Positions 1 through 6,274 of a stretch of DNA of 6,274 nucleotides are shown piece by piece; the first letter of the stretch is position 1, and every line of letters starts with the position of its first letter. Source of the DNA: a virus (taxonomy: Duplodnaviria > Heunggongvirae > Uroviricota > Caudoviricetes); the IMG/VR virus record IMGVR_UViG_2703718849_000001, positions 1-6,274 of that record. One strand, written 5' to 3'. The notes beneath the pieces are model-generated. The model ran no database searches. It saw only the letters and a list, made by a program, of their open reading frames with translations, and was not told where the DNA came from. Both the position numbers and the translations under genes were made by a program.

Positions 1-97
1 ATGGTGTCCCCTGCAGACATCTACTTGAAGCGACAGGGGATTGATTGGAATGGTGTTTTTTAGATGTGAAAAATATTTTACCCGCTATTTTACCCAT
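1..97 (-). CDS. Possible 5' end of an integrase gene (N-terminal fragment running off the left edge)
   Basis: Minus-strand ATG at 97..95 opens a frame (MGKIAGKIFFTSKKHHSNQSPVASSRCLQGTP...) with no stop down to position 1. It overlaps the excisionase stop (92..90) by 8 nt, the usual xis-int arrangement. No clear Shine-Dalgarno; the integrase call is positional inference only. Confidence 0.3.
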   Translation of the reverse strand, partial: MGKIAGKIFFTSKKHHSNQSPVASSRCLQGTP

Positions 98-290
98 TGG
101 CGCGGCTTAAGAGCTTATTTTTGAATTCACAATGGTCACGATATAACCATCTTGCTCGCCCGTGGATAACTTTGGCTTTAGGCAGGTCTCCGGACTTAAT
201 CCGGTCATAGATGAAGGTTTTACCGAAGCCAGTATCGGCCATGATGAATTTCAAATCAACCAGGGAATCAGGCTGTAGTTCGTGTTGCAT
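90..290 (-). CDS. xis: AlpA-family excisionase / prophage DNA-binding regulator (66 aa)
   Basis: ATG at 290..288 with GGAG about 9 nt upstream, TAA at 92..90. The pattern ...LKFIMADTGFGKTFIYDRIKSGDLP...RWLYRD... fits the AlpA/Xis helix-turn-helix family signature as I recall it (TG-x5-IY ... LP ... W). Sits at the distal end of the leftward operon. Confidence 0.7.
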   Translation of the reverse strand: MQHELQPDSLVDLKFIMADTGFGKTFIYDRIKSGDLPKAKVIHGRARWLYRDHCEFKNKLLSRANG

Positions 291-330
291 GAGTGCTATC
301 TCCGAATAGGGAATCGAACCTGCAAATCAG

Positions 331-358
331 GCAATAAAAAACCGCCATCAGGCGGCTT
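331..358 (-). terminator. Rho-independent terminator candidate (minus strand)
   Basis: Stem ccgcc (342-346) / ggcgg (351-355) with 4-nt loop, followed on the minus strand by UUUUUUAUU (plus 333-341). The TGA stop of the small ORF 348..515 lies in the loop. Confidence 0.45.
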
Positions 359-515
359 GGTGTTCTTTCAGTTCTTCAATTCGAATATTGGTTACGTCTG
401 CATGCGCTATCTGCGCCCATATCATCCAGTGGTTATAGCAGTCGTTGATGTCCTCTGCTTCGATAACTCTGTTGAATGGTTCTCCATTCCATTCACCTGT
501 GACTCGGAAGTGCAT
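348..515 (-). CDS. Small hypothetical protein (55 aa), below the ORF-track cutoff
   Basis: Hand translation gives MHFRVTGEWNGEPFNRVIEAEDINDCYNHWMIWAQIAHADVTNIRIEELKEHQAA. ATG at 515..513 is preceded by GGAG with 7-nt spacing; TGA at 350..348. It occupies the slot between lar and xis where Rac carries ydaC (order recalled, not checked). Confidence 0.55.
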   Translation of the reverse strand: MHFRVTGEWNGEPFNRVIEAEDINDCYNHWMIWAQIAHADVTNIRIEELKEHQAA

Positions 516-523
516 TTATCATC

Positions 524-553
524 TCCATAAAACAAAACTCGCCGTAGCGAGTT
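524..553 (-). terminator. Hairpin plus U-tract, terminator candidate (minus strand)
   Basis: Stem aactcgc (536-542) / gcgagtt (547-553), loop cgta; on the minus strand it is followed by UUGUUUUAU, immediately upstream of the SD of the 348..515 ORF. Confidence 0.35.
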
Positions 554-615
554 CAGATAAAAGAAATCCCCGCGAGTGCGAGGATTGTTATTCACCTTTG
601 ACGGCAAGTTGCAGG

Positions 616-918
616 TTAGCCATGGTTAACCTCCTGCGGAGTAGCCTTTACAAGCACTGGTGTAAATCCATCTTCATTAAGGTTATGAATATAGACTTCC
701 GTTCTCCTGCGCTCTTCAGCGTTTAATATGGTTTCTGGATCATAAACCCATACTTTCATTCGACTATTCCATGAAGAAATCGCTTCAGATTTAGTTCGTT
801 TTTCTGGTCCTTGGGCACCACATTTGCATGACACATAGCGCATTTTCCCTCTGATACTGAATGAGTATCCGATGTTAAGCACAGTGGAACCACAGAATGG
901 GCAGCGATATAGATTCAT
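616..918 (-). CDS. lar: Lar-family restriction-alleviation protein (zinc ribbon), 100 aa
   Basis: ATG at 918..916 with AAGGTGG about 8 nt upstream, overlapping the upstream gene's TGA (ATGA). N-terminal CPFCG ... CKCGA two-CxxC motif and ISSWNSR match the Lar family as I recall it. Confidence 0.65.
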   Translation of the reverse strand: MNLYRCPFCGSTVLNIGYSFSIRGKMRYVSCKCGAQGPEKRTKSEAISSWNSRMKVWVYDPETILNAEERRRTEVYIHNLNEDGFTPVLVKATPQEVNHG

Positions 919-1511
919 AAATCATCCACCTTAGGCGCAGCTGAGACAGCAACATTCCAGAACTCAGAAAACATATTGTATGCACCAGATAGATTGGAAG
1001 TGGCATACCCTCCAAGCTCACTTCTAATCTGAACGGCTCTCATCATTTCCGGGGTTAACTCCTTCGGCACCATAACCCAACCATCCGGAATTACCGGAGA
1101 GTTGCCGGGTTCTTTAATGTGCAAGCGAGGCTCACCATCTTTTGGCTCAGGCCACTGGCGCTCCATGTTGATCTTCAATTTATCTTCCATAGCAGCGGTA
1201 ATTTCAGCATCGCTGATGCAAGCACGGCGCTGTGCATCCCACAACAGAAACTGCATATCAGCCCACTCGCTAAGATCGTCTGGTTCGGCTGCGGCTTCCA
1301 GTGCCTCTTTTGAGAGATGTTTCAGCGGACCAATGGGGCCAACGCAGCCAAATGTGGAGTCAGACCATTTGGCATGCTCGTGGCGAATCTGTTCGCGTTC
1401 CAGTGATGCCAGTGCAATCCGTGCCAGTTCCATTTGTTCGCCACGGGTAAGCCCGTTATCAAGCGGATTTTTAATGAATAATTCGATACGTTCTTTGGTA
1501 ATAGTGGTCAT
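915..1511 (-). CDS. Hypothetical phage protein (198 aa), acidic
   Basis: ATG at 1511..1509 with AAGGTGA SD at 9-nt spacing; long uninterrupted ORF; stop overlaps the lar start. No family recognised. Confidence 0.75.
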   Translation of the reverse strand: MTTITKERIELFIKNPLDNGLTRGEQMELARIALASLEREQIRHEHAKWSDSTFGCVGPIGPLKHLSKEALEAAAEPDDLSEWADMQFLLWDAQRRACISDAEITAAMEDKLKINMERQWPEPKDGEPRLHIKEPGNSPVIPDGWVMVPKELTPEMMRAVQIRSELGGYATSNLSGAYNMFSEFWNVAVSAAPKVDDL

Positions 1512-1513
1512 AG

Positions 1514-1705
1514 CTATTTCACCTTAATCTCAACATTTCGCAGCTTTAGCTCTACTGGCAGGTCTGACTTTCCTGTTAATGCTAATGCGAGATTTTCTGG
1601 GGTAATGAGAGCAGTTATTGCTTTCCCCATTGCCAGACGAATAATTATTCGTATTTCGCGATCGTCACATGCTCCTGGTAGAACGATTGATATTTGTCCG
1701 TCCAT
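1514..1705 (-). CDS. Hypothetical small protein (63 aa)
   Basis: ATG at 1705..1703 preceded by AGGAG (6-nt spacing) inside the end of the upstream gene; 1 nt separates the upstream TGA from this ATG, and its own TAG is 2 nt from the next ATG. Confidence 0.6.
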   Translation of the reverse strand: MDGQISIVLPGACDDREIRIIIRLAMGKAITALITPENLALALTGKSDLPVELKLRNVEIKVK

Positions 1706-1706
1706 C

Positions 1707-2114
1707 TCACTCTCCTTTGATGCGAATGCCTGCGGCGCGGATTGCAGCGATGACTTCAGAAACTTTGTATGCCATTACCGTTTGGTAATCATCGTGAAAA
1801 TCTGTTCGATGAAGCATGCTGCTACGTTCCGGGAGCGATATTTCCCGCGCTTCCAGTTCTGCAATGCGCTTTTTTGCTGCTTCCAGTTCATCCAGTAATT
1901 CCAGTACGGTAGCCGGATTAGCCTTGGCAACAAAATCCCGGACTGGCTTACAATCAATCTCCGCAATGGGTTGATACGATGTGTAGCCATGCTGTCTTGT
2001 ATAACTACCGTGACGAATAACAAAAAAATCACCATTTATTTTTTTAGCCTGCCACTTATCTTCACCGGCTTTCTCTGCCGCTTCACGCAGTGCCTGATAG
2101 TCAATCTTGTTCAT
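1707..2114 (-). CDS. Ead/Ea22-like family protein (135 aa)
   Basis: ATG at 2114..2112 with GGTGA SD. Central coiled-coil segment ATVLELLDELEAAKKRIAELEAR resembles the ead/Ea22-like proteins of lambdoid early-left regions (recollection). Confidence 0.7.
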   Translation of the reverse strand: MNKIDYQALREAAEKAGEDKWQAKKINGDFFVIRHGSYTRQHGYTSYQPIAEIDCKPVRDFVAKANPATVLELLDELEAAKKRIAELEAREISLPERSSMLHRTDFHDDYQTVMAYKVSEVIAAIRAAGIRIKGE

Positions 2115-2115
2115 G

Positions 2116-2415
2116 TCACATCACCCTGAATCCGTTGCATTTACGTAAGAAATCGCAGATATAGCCCTTCATTTTTTCATGACAATCTCGATCATTCCCA
2201 TTGCACCAACCATCAGGTGGAGTCCAGTTTTCTATCAGAGCAGCCATTTTCTTTGCTTTCGCCGGAGTAGCTGTTGCGGTATCGCAGTAATGACGAGTGT
2301 CAACCAACGCATCCATACCATCGATATCAAGTACGCAAAACCATGTGTGATTCGGAATTCCTACAGGTGGTATTTGTTGCCCACGTCGACGTTTATCAAT
2401 AAGATATACACTCAC
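2116..2415 (-). CDS. Hypothetical Cys-rich protein (99 aa from GTG)
   Basis: The ORF-track frame 2116..2436 begins with GTG at 2436; a second in-frame GTG at 2415..2413 is preceded by a perfect AGGAGG (2427..2422) with 6-nt spacing and overlaps the TGA of the upstream 55-aa ORF (GTGA). C-terminal C-x7-C-x9-C-x6-C spacing. Confidence 0.6.
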
Positions 2416-2579
2416 TGCTTGCCTCCTTTGCGCCACATCGCATTCAGATATTTGTTTTGATTTACTGACGGAAAAGAATTTCTCTTAAGCAATTCCTCTC
2501 TCGATGGCATTGGCTTTACGCGTTGGCGAATAATCATTTCTGCCGGAAGAATGCCGGGGTTGTATGCAAGTCCTCTCAT
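2412..2579 (-). CDS. Small hypothetical protein (55 aa), below the ORF-track cutoff
   Basis: Hand translation gives [58 protein letters not shown] at 2579..2577 overlaps the TGA of the upstream gene (ATGA) and has GGAG 6 nt upstream; its own TGA overlaps the downstream GTG start. It fills an otherwise empty 160-nt gap exactly. Confidence 0.5.
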
Positions 2580-2866
2580 GATTTACTCTCCACGAACTGG
2601 TCAATAGCCATGCTAAGTGACATACCTAAAGTCTCGATATGCTGCTGAATATCCTGTAGCGTCTGCGCCTGAGATAACAGGATTTCACGGTTGCATAACT
2701 CTTTAACCAGATGCTCAAACTTGCTGTAATAACCGATACGGCTTAGTGTTTCTTTCCCTGCATTCTCGCCTTCTTTGATAATTCCTCTTTCGCTAAGAAT
2801 CAGATCGTGTTTTGTTCCGGTAATAACGTATTTTCCGAGGTCGATGTTTAGCTTCATTGTTTTCAT
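2576..2866 (-). CDS. Hypothetical protein (96 aa)
   Basis: The 146-aa track ORF starts at TTG inside the upstream gene. The ATG at 2866..2864 ([14 protein letters not shown]...) lies 10 nt past the upstream TGA with GAGGA SD at 7-nt spacing, so the gene is trimmed to 2576..2866. Confidence 0.65.
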
Positions 2867-2876
2867 TGTTAATTCC

Positions 2877-3170
2877 TCAGTCATTACTGATAGCGCCATA
2901 GCGTGAGCGGTAATTACGCAGGCGCGGGTCGATTTCAGGGAAGTGGGTATATGTGGCTTTGCGGAATGGTCGGATTGATGTCTGGTAAATTCGCTCTCGT
3001 TCTTCTTTCTCTGCAAGCCATATGCAGTGGCGAAACTCCTTTTCCTCTTTCGTTTCCTGCGGTAGAGACATTATTCGATCGTAGTTTTTTCTGAATTTAT
3101 CCAGCACCTCCGATACGGAATTGCCGGAACAGCGGCGCGCGTCATCCGCACCATACAGAGGCGCTGGCAT
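2877..3170 (-). CDS. Hypothetical protein (97 aa), basic
   Basis: ATG at 3170..3168 with AAGGA SD about 8 nt upstream; TGA at 2879..2877. No family recognised. Confidence 0.65.
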   Translation of the reverse strand: MPAPLYGADDARRCSGNSVSEVLDKFRKNYDRIMSLPQETKEEKEFRHCIWLAEKEERERIYQTSIRPFRKATYTHFPEIDPRLRNYRSRYGAISND

Positions 3171-3193
3171 AATTAAATCCTTATTTTTCTAAA

Positions 3194-3577
3194 TCAGAAT
3201 GGGATGGAATCGTCGTATACAGGAGTGTTCTGCTGGTTACTACTTTGCTGCTGCGGGCCATTTCCTGAAGCTGCAAATCCAATCTTTGCATTCAGTAATT
3301 CAAGAGTGATTGATTGACAATTTTGCCCCTGATAAACATCAACCCTGATGTTTTCTCCGGTAATTTCCACAATGCCACCTTCAACAAGAACACTACGGTA
3401 GTAATCCGCTTGCGCTCCCGGCTTGGCAAATACAACGGCGCTGTAGTTTGTCCATTCTTTCTTTTTTGTCTGGCGATCGTAATGCTGAACTCCAGCACGG
3501 ATGTTGAATCCGATATTTTCCCCGGCCTGAAACTCTCTTGCGGGCTTGTTTAGTCTTACAGTAATCGAATGTGCCAT
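3194..3577 (-). CDS. ssb: Phage SSB-like single-stranded DNA-binding protein (127 aa) with acidic C-terminal tip
   Basis: C-terminus ...NTPVYDDSIPF matches the conserved SSB tail (E. coli SSB ends DDDIPF), preceded by a Gln/Ser-rich linker. The ATG at 3577..3575 (MAHSITV...) overlaps the Erf TAA (TAATG); the track's 157-aa version is an out-of-frame upstream extension. Confidence 0.75.
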   Translation of the reverse strand: MAHSITVRLNKPAREFQAGENIGFNIRAGVQHYDRQTKKKEWTNYSAVVFAKPGAQADYYRSVLVEGGIVEITGENIRVDVYQGQNCQSITLELLNAKIGFAASGNGPQQQSSNQQNTPVYDDSIPF

Positions 3578-4182
3578 TAAGCAGCAGCTCCTTCTAATTC
3601 GTCTCGTCTGATGTTGTAAACGTCCTGCGCTTTGTGCTGCTCCGGTGTGCCTTCGAGCATCTTCCACGCTTTGGCGAACGCCTGTTTAAGCTCTTCTACG
3701 GTGTTTTTCTGCATTGCTGCGTCAGTGAATGCTTTTAGAACCTGTTCAGGTGTAGGTAATGGTTTTGATTGCTTTGCTGCTGCGTTCTGCTGATGTTTAT
3801 GCTCGTCGGTATCTGCATCTTTCGCATCATCAATGCCGAATAAACCATTGAGGCAATACTTGCGTGCATAAGAGCTTGTAGCTCCCGTAACTTGTGCAGA
3901 ATCCATTCCTTTCTTGCTTTCTTCCTCTCGTGCAAGAGCGGTTGCTTTATGACTGTTTTCGCCATCAGTAATAGTTGCCGTTGCTTTCACGTAATACCGA
4001 TCACCAATCAACACAACTTCATCGCTGATTGATAAAAACAGGCCATTCAGTAACGGCTTAACACCCTCAAGAATGTCTTCGCAGCTTCTGTATTTATATT
4101 TGCCGAATGAGTTGTATTGATTCTTTGGCGCGTTCAGATTCTCCTGAATAGCTGCCAGCCTTGCGTAAAATTCTTTGCTCAT
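3577..4182 (-). CDS. erf: Erf-family single-strand annealing recombinase (201 aa)
   Basis: From the ATG at 4182..4180 the protein begins MSKEFYARLAAIQENLNAPKNQYNSFGKYKYRSCEDILEGVKPLL..., which matches my recollection of P22 Erf. The track's start is a TTG at 4212, 10 codons upstream. TAA overlaps the ssb start. Confidence 0.8.
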   Translation of the reverse strand: MSKEFYARLAAIQENLNAPKNQYNSFGKYKYRSCEDILEGVKPLLNGLFLSISDEVVLIGDRYYVKATATITDGENSHKATALAREEESKKGMDSAQVTGATSSYARKYCLNGLFGIDDAKDADTDEHKHQQNAAAKQSKPLPTPEQVLKAFTDAAMQKNTVEELKQAFAKAWKMLEGTPEQHKAQDVYNIRRDELEGAAA

Positions 4183-4283
4183 ATGTTTGTTCTCAGAATG
4201 GACATTCCCCAAGGAAATAACGCTGATTTAATACTTCGACTCGGGACAAATTAAGGCATACCCGCATTCCTTCGCGGTCGCCA

Positions 4284-4442
4284 TTATGGCGATGCCAGAG
4301 AGCTTTCTGCGTGTACATGCGTCTCTGTAACTTGCTCTCCTTCACTGTGGTTGCAAGTGACATGAATATCTCCTTCGTTACCGATTAATTCTTTCATCTG
4401 ACGAATGAATTCTTCGTCTGACCAGTTATCTGTAAAACTCAT
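4284..4442 (-). CDS. Small acidic hypothetical peptide (52 aa) between kil and erf
   Basis: Hand translation gives MSFTDNWSDEEFIRQMKELIGNEGDIHVTCNHSEGEQVTETHVHAESSLASP. ATG at 4442..4440 overlaps the kil TGA (ATGA); TAA at 4286..4284. No SD beyond the coupling; function unknown. Confidence 0.4.
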   Translation of the reverse strand: MSFTDNWSDEEFIRQMKELIGNEGDIHVTCNHSEGEQVTETHVHAESSLASP

Positions 4443-4591
4443 TTCCTGCGATACCACGGAAGGTTGATAGCTGATTTCATCGCTTTATTTGCTTCAAGCC
4501 ACATTTTTGAATCACCAATAAATCTGGCTATTACTGCTTTGTTCTGTGCAGCACGAAGCATCTGGTGATTGATGGCTATTTCATTGCGCAT
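4439..4591 (-). CDS. kil: Kil-like host cell-division inhibitor peptide (50 aa)
   Basis: Hand translation gives MRNEIAINHQMLRAAQNKAVIARFIGDSKMWLEANKAMKSAINLPWYRRK. The IA-x-FIGD-x-KM segment and the position directly downstream of, and overlapping, cIII fit lambda Kil as I recall it. GGAGG lies 4 nt upstream of the ATG at 4591. Confidence 0.5.
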   Translation of the reverse strand: MRNEIAINHQMLRAAQNKAVIARFIGDSKMWLEANKAMKSAINLPWYRRK

Positions 4592-4710
4592 AACGCCTCC
4601 AGTTGTTTCTTTGCTGCTCTGATTAATTGTTTAACTCGGCGTGATAATTCAGATTCGTGCGGGTAGAAAGCGGACATGACGCCGCTACCCGCGAGCTGAA
4701 AGTGCATCAT
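4576..4710 (-). CDS. cIII: CIII-like FtsH inhibitor peptide (44 aa)
   Basis: Hand translation gives MMHFQLAGSGVMSAFYPHESELSRRVKQLIRAAKKQLEALCAMK. GGAG lies 6 nt upstream of the ATG at 4710. The N-terminus and the central amphipathic helix ESELSRRVKQLIR align with lambda CIII (MQYAIAG...ESLLERITRKLRD, from memory). Confidence 0.6.
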   Translation of the reverse strand: MMHFQLAGSGVMSAFYPHESELSRRVKQLIRAAKKQLEALCAMK

Positions 4711-4740
4711 GGGTAACTCCTTATATTTGATTGCATAACG

Positions 4741-4765
4741 AAAACGCCTCAAGTGAAGCGTTATT
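4741..4765 (-). terminator. Hairpin plus U-tract, terminator candidate (minus strand) between ea10 and cIII
   Basis: Minus-strand RNA forms an 8-bp stem AACGCUUC / GAGGCGUU (one G-U wobble), loop ACUU, followed by UUCGUUAU. The plus-strand RNA would have a mismatch instead, so the structure is strand-specific. Confidence 0.35.
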
Positions 4766-4785
4766 GGTATGCGGTAAAGCCGCGC

Positions 4786-5154
4786 TCAGGCGGCTTTGAT
4801 AGTCATATCATCTGAATCAAATATTCCTGATGTATCGATATCGGTAATTCTTATTCCTTCACTACCATCCATTGGAGGCCATCCTTCCTGACCATTTCCA
4901 TCATCCCAGTCGAACTCACAAACAACACCATATGCATTTAAGTCTTTCGAAATTGCTATAAGCAGAGCATGTTGCGCCAGCATGATTAATACAGCATTTA
5001 ATACAGCGCCGTGTTTATTGAGTCGGTATTCAGAGTCTGACCAGAAATTATTAATCTGGTGAAGTTTTTCCTCTGTCATTACGTCATGGTCGATTTCAAT
5101 TTCTATTGATGCTTTCCAGTCGTAATCAATGATGTATTTTTTGATGTTTGACAT
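4786..5154 (-). CDS. ea10: Ea10-like early-left protein (122 aa)
   Basis: ATG at 5154..5152 with GAGGA SD at 9-nt spacing; 122 aa, the size and position of lambda Ea10 between ral and cIII. Sequence identity to Ea10 is recollection only. Confidence 0.6.
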   Translation of the reverse strand: MSNIKKYIIDYDWKASIEIEIDHDVMTEEKLHQINNFWSDSEYRLNKHGAVLNAVLIMLAQHALLIAISKDLNAYGVVCEFDWDDGNGQEGWPPMDGSEGIRITDIDTSGIFDSDDMTIKAA

Positions 5155-5171
5155 CTATTCATATCCTCATA

Positions 5172-5200
5172 GATAAAAAATCGCCCTCACACTGGAGGGC
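5172..5200 (-). terminator. Rho-independent terminator candidate (minus strand) upstream of ea10
   Basis: Minus-strand stem GCCCUC / GAGGGC (plus 5183-5188 / 5195-5200), 6-nt loop, followed by GAUUUUUUAUCU. The plus-strand downstream flank is A/G-rich, so it is orientation-specific. Confidence 0.5.
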
Positions 5201-5295
5201 AAAGAAGATTTCCAATAATCAGAACAAGTCGGCTCCTGTTTAGTTACGAGCGACATTGCTCCGTGTATTCACTCGTTGGAATGAATACACAGTGC

Positions 5296-5508
5296 TTATT
5301 CGCGAGCTTTGAGCATGGCATCAGCAATAAAGTAGGCATCATCTGCTAATTCTTTGTACTGTGGTGAATTCTGTCCACCGCCAAAGGAATGTCCGTCCCA
5401 TCTGCGCACTATTGCTGCCATAGCCTTAGCAGCGAAGTAATCACGTAATGTCGCATCACTTGCCATTTCTGGGCGTTTGATATCTGCTTCATAAAACTCG
5501 CACATCAT
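5296..5508 (-). CDS. Hypothetical protein (70 aa)
   Basis: Tandem ATG ATG at 5508..5503 preceded by GGAGGTGA; the first ATG overlaps the TGA of the upstream 44-aa ORF (ATGA). No family recognised. Confidence 0.6.
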   Translation of the reverse strand: MMCEFYEADIKRPEMASDATLRDYFAAKAMAAIVRRWDGHSFGGGQNSPQYKELADDAYFIADAMLKARE

Positions 5509-5639
5509 TCACCTCCAAGAGCATTTGCAGCCTCTTTTGCTTTGTGAATCCATAGCAGAGCCATGCAGTACACAGCCTTTTCGTCGGCTCCTGTGATATC
5601 TTGCTCTGCCATCCATTTTGTAAATTCAACTGTGTTCAT
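5505..5639 (-). CDS. Small hypothetical protein (44 aa), below the ORF-track cutoff
   Basis: Hand translation gives MNTVEFTKWMAEQDITGADEKAVYCMALLWIHKAKEAANALGGE. ATG at 5639..5637 with GAGGTGA just upstream; TGA overlaps the start of the 70-aa gene. Confidence 0.45.
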   Translation of the reverse strand: MNTVEFTKWMAEQDITGADEKAVYCMALLWIHKAKEAANALGGE

Positions 5640-5660
5640 ATTCACCTCTGTTGTTTATGC

Positions 5661-5688
5661 CAAAAATAAAGGCCACCATCAGGCAGCC
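5661..5688 (-). terminator. Rho-independent terminator candidate (minus strand) immediately after ral
   Basis: Minus-strand RNA: GGCUGCC-UGAU-GGUGGCC (7 bp including two G-U wobbles) followed by UUUAUUUUUGG. The ral TGA (5681..5679) sits in the loop. The plus-strand RNA would have C-A mismatches. Confidence 0.5.
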
Positions 5689-5879
5689 TTGTTATTCTGT
5701 TTACCAAGTTCTCTGGCAATCATTGCCGTCGTTCGTATTGCCCATTTATCGACATATTTCCCATCTTCCATTACATGAAACATTTCTTCAGGCTTAACCA
5801 TGCATTCCGATTGCAGCTTGCATCCATTGCATCGCTTGAATTGTCCACACCATTGATTTGTATCAATAGTCGTAGTCAT
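5679..5879 (-). CDS. ral: Restriction-alleviation protein Ral (66 aa)
   Basis: MTTTIDTNQWCGQFKRCNGCKLQSECMVKPEEMFHVMEDGKYVDKWAIRTTAMIARELGKQNNKAA is near-identical to lambda Ral as I recall it, and of the same length. ATG at 5879..5877. Confidence 0.85.
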   Translation of the reverse strand: MTTTIDTNQWCGQFKRCNGCKLQSECMVKPEEMFHVMEDGKYVDKWAIRTTAMIARELGKQNNKAA

Positions 5880-5949
5880 ACGGATAGTCCTGGTATTGTT
5901 CCATCACATCCTGAGGATGCTCTTCGAACTCTTCAAATTCTTCTTCCAT
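5863..5949 (-). CDS. Orf28-like acidic peptide (28 aa) overlapping the ral start
   Basis: Hand translation gives MEEEFEEFEEHPQDVMEQYQDYPYDYDY. ATG at 5949..5947 with GAGGTGA upstream; TGA at 5865..5863, overlapping ral by 17 nt. This matches the lambda orf28/ral arrangement as I remember it. Confidence 0.35.
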   Translation of the reverse strand: MEEEFEEFEEHPQDVMEQYQDYPYDYDY

Positions 5950-5957
5950 ATCTCACC

Positions 5958-6274
5958 TCAAATAAGTGGTTTGCTGCCTAATTTCATTTTCTGGCGACCA
6001 ACACAAGTCACCCCCATTTCACTGCGTGGCTTGCTGTACCATGTGCGCTGATTCTTGCGCTCAATACGTTGCAGGTTGCTTTCAATCTGTTCGTGGTATT
6101 CAGCCAGCACTGTAAGGTCTATCGGATTCAGTGCGCTTTCTACTCGTGATTTCGGTTTGCGATTCAGCGAGAGAATAGGGCGGTTAACTGGTTTTGCGCT
6201 TACCCCAACCAACAGGGGATTTGCTGCTTTCCATTGAGCCTGTTTCTCTGCGCGACGTTCGCGGCGGCGTGTTT
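5958..6274 (-). CDS. N: Antitermination protein N (5' end truncated by the window edge; about 4 codons missing)
   Basis: The minus-strand frame is open from 6272 down to the stop at 5960..5958: TRRRERRAEKQAQWKAANPLLVGVSAKPVNRPILSLNRKPKSRVESALNPIDLTVLAEYHEQIESNLQRIERKNQRTWYSKP...PLI. The arginine-rich motif and most of the sequence match lambda N (MDAQTRRRERRAEKQAQWKAANPLL...); the C-terminal roughly 25 residues diverge. The track's TTG start at 6212 is an artefact. Confidence 0.9.
   Translation of the reverse strand, partial: TRRRERRAEKQAQWKAANPLLVGVSAKPVNRPILSLNRKPKSRVESALNPIDLTVLAEYHEQIESNLQRIERKNQRTWYSKPRSEMGVTCVGRQKMKLGSKPLI

Follow-up and report, generated by a model that had tools for sequence, protein, structure and literature searches.

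The window analysed here, a stretch of 6,274 nt in which all genes lie on the minus strand, contains at positions 2116-2415 a small gene with a cysteine-rich product, and the question raised by this locus is whether the product binds a metal through its cysteines or is a protein of another kind. The initial annotation had described a 99-residue ORF with an unusual GTG start behind a perfect AGGAGG, and had suggested a small metal-binding domain. The best overall explanation, which is favoured by a modest measure, is that the gene is a homolog of gene 22 of Shigella phage Sf6 whose product has a metal-independent fold and acts as an early accessory binder.

The gene is a real protein-coding gene and the GTG at 2415 is its correct start. 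The 99-codon ORF and its stop codon (TGA, 2118-2116) fill positions 2116-2415 on the minus strand, the strand not having been stated before. The start codon (GTG, 2413-2415, minus strand) overlaps the TGA stop (2412-2414) of a 55-aa upstream ORF as GTGA, in agreement with the coupling described earlier, and the Shine-Dalgarno sequence AGGAGG (2422-2427, minus strand) is located 6 nt upstream of the GTG. It sits within the final codons (K-G-G-K-Q) of the upstream, translationally coupled gene (2412-2579, minus strand), which encodes a DUF2737 protein (PF10930, E=8.8e-32; phrog_1117) and corresponds, by the Sf6 annotation, to Sf6 gene 23. When the Shine-Dalgarno region was aligned, AAAGGAGG was found to be conserved in most related loci. 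The same aligned codon is the start in 87 related loci, as GTG in 69 and as ATG in 18; GTG is strictly paired with an upstream DUF2737 protein ending in GG(K/N/S)Q directly before the stop, and ATG is used where the upstream gene differs. M1 is invariant in an alignment of 43 diverse family members, the 300-nt CDS is identically annotated in phage Sf6 and by RefSeq PGAP in E. coli chromosomes, and the match to PHROG 1239 (phrog_1239, E=2.4e-54) covers residues 1-99 and the full profile, positions 1-96 of 96. Among 60 distinct close coding sequences pN/pS is about 0.26, with an excess of changes at third positions. A GTG at 2436, which opens the longest mechanical ORF (106 aa), was rejected as the start: its additional codons fall within the upstream gene and are unconserved where that gene differs, and the 99-aa start is preferred because both the family alignments and the annotations favour it. 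Proteins of 153-154 aa that appear as DUF2737+DUF7739 "fusions" (P0004, P0006, P0007) were also set aside, since at the 4-nt overlap their gene calls are frameshifted or extended too far. All family members have Ser (AGT) or Thr (ACN) as residue 2; the start therefore always reads NTGA, and the overlapped-stop layout is thus kept even in distant loci with other upstream genes.

The description of the start codon as unusual was overstated. The gene order is Erf, SSB, abc2 (anti-RecBCD), a P2-orf83-like gene, DUF2737, DUF7739, an Ead/Ea22-like gene and a 63-aa ORF, followed by genes for a dATP/dGTP pyrophosphohydrolase-domain protein, a Lar-like restriction-alleviation protein and xis/TorI. From the gp24-like gene to Lar all junctions range from -4 to +2 nt and include two ATGA overlaps besides the GTGA; the Ead/Ea22-like gene (1707-2114, minus strand; PF13935, E=6.7e-18) has its ATG 1 nt after the stop of the DUF7739 gene. 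A promoter-like or terminator-like site flanking the DUF7739 gene was not found, nor did any Rfam family match in the window. Given these tight junctions and the lack of flanking promoter or terminator signals, the strong Shine-Dalgarno sequence, the GTG and the overlap represent routine coupling within a polycistronic message. Translation from the GTG at 2415 would then proceed, by way of the AGGAGG and the 4-nt stop/start overlap, through the standard termination-reinitiation coupling that would also serve its neighbours. The locus lies within the variable accessory section of the early-left (PL-type) operon, in a P22-like (Lederbergvirus) prophage of E. coli. The Ead/Ea22-like gene comes after the DUF7739 gene in nearly all close relatives examined; when an obligate partner was sought, the gene upstream was found to vary and distant homologs to have unrelated neighbours. 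The region is strongly mosaic at larger scale: parts of the window are present in 3733 of 5426 E. coli genomes, and no complete E. coli genome covers at least 80% of the whole window (1-6274) in one place, the best reaching 75%.

The protein belongs to Pfam family DUF7739 (PF24881), for which it scored 64.8 bits, above the curated gathering threshold of 27 bits by which HMM membership is decided (E=1.1e-17; residues 3-93 aligned to positions 3-92 of the 98-position profile). It shares 98% identity across all 99 residues with the Sf6 gene 22 protein (Sf6p22, NP_958198.1). In Sf6p22 and its homologs in HK75, APC_JM3.2 and CUS-3 the CDS length, the 4-nt overlap with DUF2737 and the downstream Ead/Ea22-like gene are as in the window, and the Sf6 operon likewise has gp22 flanked by the DUF2737 and Ead/Ea22-like genes and has Erf, SSB and abc2 lying upstream; further downstream the gene content departs from that of Sf6 because the region is mosaic. 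The identity of the gene as an Sf6 gene 22 homolog of the DUF7739 family and its start, taken jointly, are regarded as practically certain. Gene, start, family and identical protein are already present in public annotation: RefSeq names the product "DUF7739 domain-containing protein", and the identical protein is found in NCBI/UniRef. A functional study was not found; literature searches for DUF7739, phrog_1239, Sf6p22/NP_958198, WP_001593200, HCM2.0097c and fHe-Yen8-01 returned no paper, and those for DUF2737 a single mention in an unrelated paper. A report on tail-assembly interference (Tai) proved unrelated to the protein, and peptide strings of the protein were absent from the supplements of two accessory-gene screens by Silas et al. 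A search of NCBIfam with the protein gave no match, and when the diverse alignment was used in an annotated search, the names recovered were restricted to "hypothetical" and "DUF7739".

The family is wider than its Pfam model, since the model detects just 12 of the 43 diverse relatives obtained by profile search. It is nevertheless small: a profile search of 1.84 billion cluster representatives yielded just 72 relatives at E<=0.001, nearly all of them stand-alone proteins of about 90-100 aa. The conserved positions in the 43-sequence alignment are M1, N22, D45, W70, F89, C93, G95 and F96; half of these are aromatic or small, a pattern consistent with a structural core. The protein has 14 basic and 12 acidic residues and a pI of 8.2, within a family range of 4.1-9.7 (median 4.9) and a range of 6.5-9.7 in the clade designated A1. 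The named sources of homologs are Enterobacterales, and none of the homologs carries a functional name.

The genomic settings of the homologs are diverse. They are present in the early-left region of P22-like phages and of Edwardsiella phage EPP-1, and in arrays of small genes of uncultured phages. In Mu-like phages the homolog lies between the genes for the tail tube and the tail (assembly) chaperone, as in Escherichia phage PhiKM (locus L089, 3501-3782) and KP12_2 (locus L092, 2980-3261). SSU5-like phages of 92-95 kb, by the size given in their records, also carry homologs; one of the homologs, gp123 of Yersinia phage fHe-Yen8-01 (locus L003, 2501-2809), is annotated as "particle associated protein" and is closely followed by a giant gene annotated [quoted passage not shown]. 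Homologs occur in SSU5/pHCM2-like elements, and the Sf6 annotation itself notes the similarity to a pHCM2 gene. A further 104 plasmids carry homologs, 101 of them non-mobilizable; those listed are 91-143 kb, and this size suggests that phage-plasmids are the carriers. A distant homolog was also observed about 2 kb from a Wadjet-like cluster comprising MksE, JetD_C and DUF3584 (locus L097, 8303-12285), on a contig of 102 kb that also encodes ParA and may represent a plasmid or island context. One homolog (P0071, 187 aa) has an extra C-terminal domain ending in VGNIYQNPELI, which we take to be reminiscent of YopX-family phage proteins.

The suggestion of a metal-binding domain was drawn from the cysteines. 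The protein contains six cysteines (positions 27, 44, 71, 78, 87 and 93) and three histidines in 99 residues. The C-terminal peptide quoted in the initial annotation is correct and four cysteines (71, 78, 87 and 93) do fall within the last 30 residues, but the spacing given there (x7, x9, x6) over-counted each gap by one, the actual pattern being C71-x6-C78-x8-C87-x5-C93. A small structural site for zinc or another metal, of the zinc-ribbon or treble-clef kind, would agree with the small size and the several cysteines of the protein, and with the retention of C27, C44, C71, C87 and C93 within the closest E. coli/Shigella clade. The pattern, however, contains no CxxC or CxxH knuckle, and no two cysteines are 2-4 residues apart; a zinc ribbon or treble clef draws its four ligands from two Cys/His knuckles of the CxxC type. 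Codon 78 (TGT, 2182-2184, minus strand) is TGG (Trp) in all 82 close relatives, and Sf6 likewise has W78; judged from these alignments, the four-cysteine motif is only apparent and owes its C78 to a private W78C allele. The allele is real, since it was found in exactly this form in 10 public E. coli contigs, yet it is a minor variant. Most of the other candidate ligands are poorly conserved. Homologs at 60-77% identity have C27 replaced by K, C44 by N, C87 by V or I and H23 by G, and C71 and H42 are also replaced in homologs; family-wide, C87 is mostly I, V or L, C71 mostly F or G, and C44 mostly N, the other Cys and His positions being mostly replaced or gapped across the 43 diverse members. 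Only C93 (TGC, 2137-2139, minus strand), within a C-terminal C-x-G-F motif, is conserved throughout the family (42 of 43 members). The motif that drew attention to the gene thus rests partly on a private allele, and one of its four cysteines is conserved.

The predicted structure points in the same direction. AlphaFold2 gave a compact α/β fold (pLDDT 85.6, pTM 0.79) with strands at residues 2-7 and 18-21, helices at 22-29, 51-63 and 76-92, and a final strand at 96-98. A family member with 34% identity, whose only kept cysteine is the C93 equivalent, was predicted by AlphaFold with the same topology and at higher confidence (pLDDT 92.7, pTM 0.84). The fold is accordingly described, as a prediction, as a compact, metal-independent alpha/beta domain (beta-beta-alpha ... 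alpha-alpha-beta), with a predicted core of the conserved aromatic residues W25, F26, W70, F89 and F96. The C-terminal segment is alpha-helical in the prediction, in place of the beta-hairpin on which zinc folds of the proposed kind are based. C78 and C87 are 9 residues apart within one predicted helix (76-92), and the model places H79 and C93 at either end of that helix, so that they would not be expected to share a metal ion. No zinc-ribbon or treble-clef structure was among the matches in fold searches of the model. The four-cysteine pattern is incidental and is not a conserved metal-binding site; a C-terminal metal site of the kind proposed is very improbable, and the protein is with high probability not a zinc domain.

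Searches for solved relatives returned nothing significant, whether by Foldseek against the PDB and the BFVD viral fold collection or by sequence against the PDB with the single sequence and the family profile. The weak fold neighbours are protein binders. Compared with the Neisseria DNA mimic DMP12 (PDB 3w1o) and the Burkholderia immunity protein CdiI-E479 (PDB 5j4a), the DUF7739 protein is 9-10% identical in sequence, and neither Foldseek nor profile searches linked it to either of them. DMP12 is composed of five helices and four strands, and rows of acidic residues on its surface mimic DNA (PMC3643605). With a pI of 8.2 the present protein lacks such an acidic surface, whereas other members of the family are acidic. 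In contrast to CdiI, no toxin gene adjoins the DUF7739 gene, its neighbours being the DUF2737 and Ead/Ea22-like genes; a search for toxin domains among its neighbours likewise found none. The likeness to small protein-binding inhibitors is therefore a lead and not a classification.

As to function, the reading that we prefer, tentatively and short of considering it probable in itself, is that of a small early accessory protein without enzymatic activity, which binds some factor of the host or of a rival. The gene would move between phages as a stand-alone small gene, with widely varying surface and charge, and its product, which appears to lack any enzymatic or cofactor motif, would bind, in stoichiometric amounts, a macromolecule of the host or of a competitor during the early lytic phase. 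Such binding would serve host takeover or counter-defence, with the protein as an accessory factor. This role is proposed because the neighbours include abc2 and Lar, because the stand-alone module is found in unrelated genome slots and moves between phage backbones, because surface charge is variable (as seen in the pI here against the family median), because an enzymatic motif is absent, and because the weak fold neighbours bind proteins. Counting against it, the conserved C93 together with N22 and D45 could indicate chemistry, and a virion-related role would explain the "particle associated" annotation and the position in the tail cluster of Mu-like phages. A more specific version, in which DUF7739 is an undescribed family of small phage inhibitors for counter-defence or host takeover, directed at a protein of the host or of a rival element, is speculative and considered rather unlikely; if true, it would give a family common to P22-like, Mu-like and SSU5-like phages and large non-mobilizable plasmids, with a compact alpha/beta fold, no confident solved relative and, in some phages, perhaps a place in the virion.

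Several other roles were weighed against that of an accessory binder of host or rival factors. Members of the basic, Sf6-like clade might be small nucleic-acid-binding factors that use the hairpin tip K8-R-R-R-G12 and the Lys-rich helix A52-K-A-K-K56 and might, together with Erf, SSB and Abc2, influence for example recombination, replication or transcription. The pI of 8.2, with 6.5-9.7 across the A1 clade, the invariance of R9, R10, K55 and K56 in the A1 alignment and the location of the gene in the recombination part of the operon agree with this, but the wider family is acidic and has the basic hairpin shortened or absent, the fold searches matched none of the known DNA- or RNA-binding folds, and Pfam gave no match to an HTH, OB or similar domain; such a role is improbable. 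Even less probable is a virion-associated role, either as a minor accessory protein of the tail or of assembly, or as one that is packaged along with the DNA and ejected with it. The fHe-Yen8-01 homolog, which adjoins other particle-associated proteins and the giant toxin, and the Mu-like homologs in the tail cluster would fit it. In P22-like phages, however, the gene has non-structural neighbours in the early-left operon and is far from the late genes, and the slot that it occupies in the late structural cluster of Mu-like phages is typical of moron insertions; in P2, we know of no gene between FII and E. Comparably improbable is that the prophage carries the gene for the benefit of the lysogen, in defence or superinfection exclusion. 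The occurrence of a small mobile gene on prophages and on non-mobilizable plasmids of 91-120 kb, and the adjacency of one distant homolog to a Wadjet-like cluster, speak for it. Against it, none of the PADLOC defence-system profiles matched at E<=0.1, and the gene occupies an internal position in an early operon of tightly coupled genes, no promoter-like signal of its own having been found. By analogy with P22 and lambda PL, the early-left operon would be repressed in the lysogen.

As a compact accessory protein whose fold is predicted with confidence, and which turns up in several unrelated backbones of temperate phages next to the counter-defence genes abc2 and Lar, DUF7739 is a reasonable candidate for functional (counter-defence) screens of phage accessory genes.

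Two other genes of the window have cysteine arrangements of note. The Lar-like protein (616-918, minus strand; PF14354) contains true knuckles, C6-x2-C9 and C31-x-C33, whereas gp22 has neither a knuckle nor a conserved set of ligands; a zinc-ribbon-type motif of the kind sought in the DUF7739 protein is thus carried by a different gene of the same operon. Near the N-antiterminator end of the operon, a 66-aa ORF (5679-5879, minus strand) has a tight cysteine cluster C-x5-C-x2-C-x5-C (WCGQFKRCNGCKLQSEC), and its product could be a small metal-binding protein.
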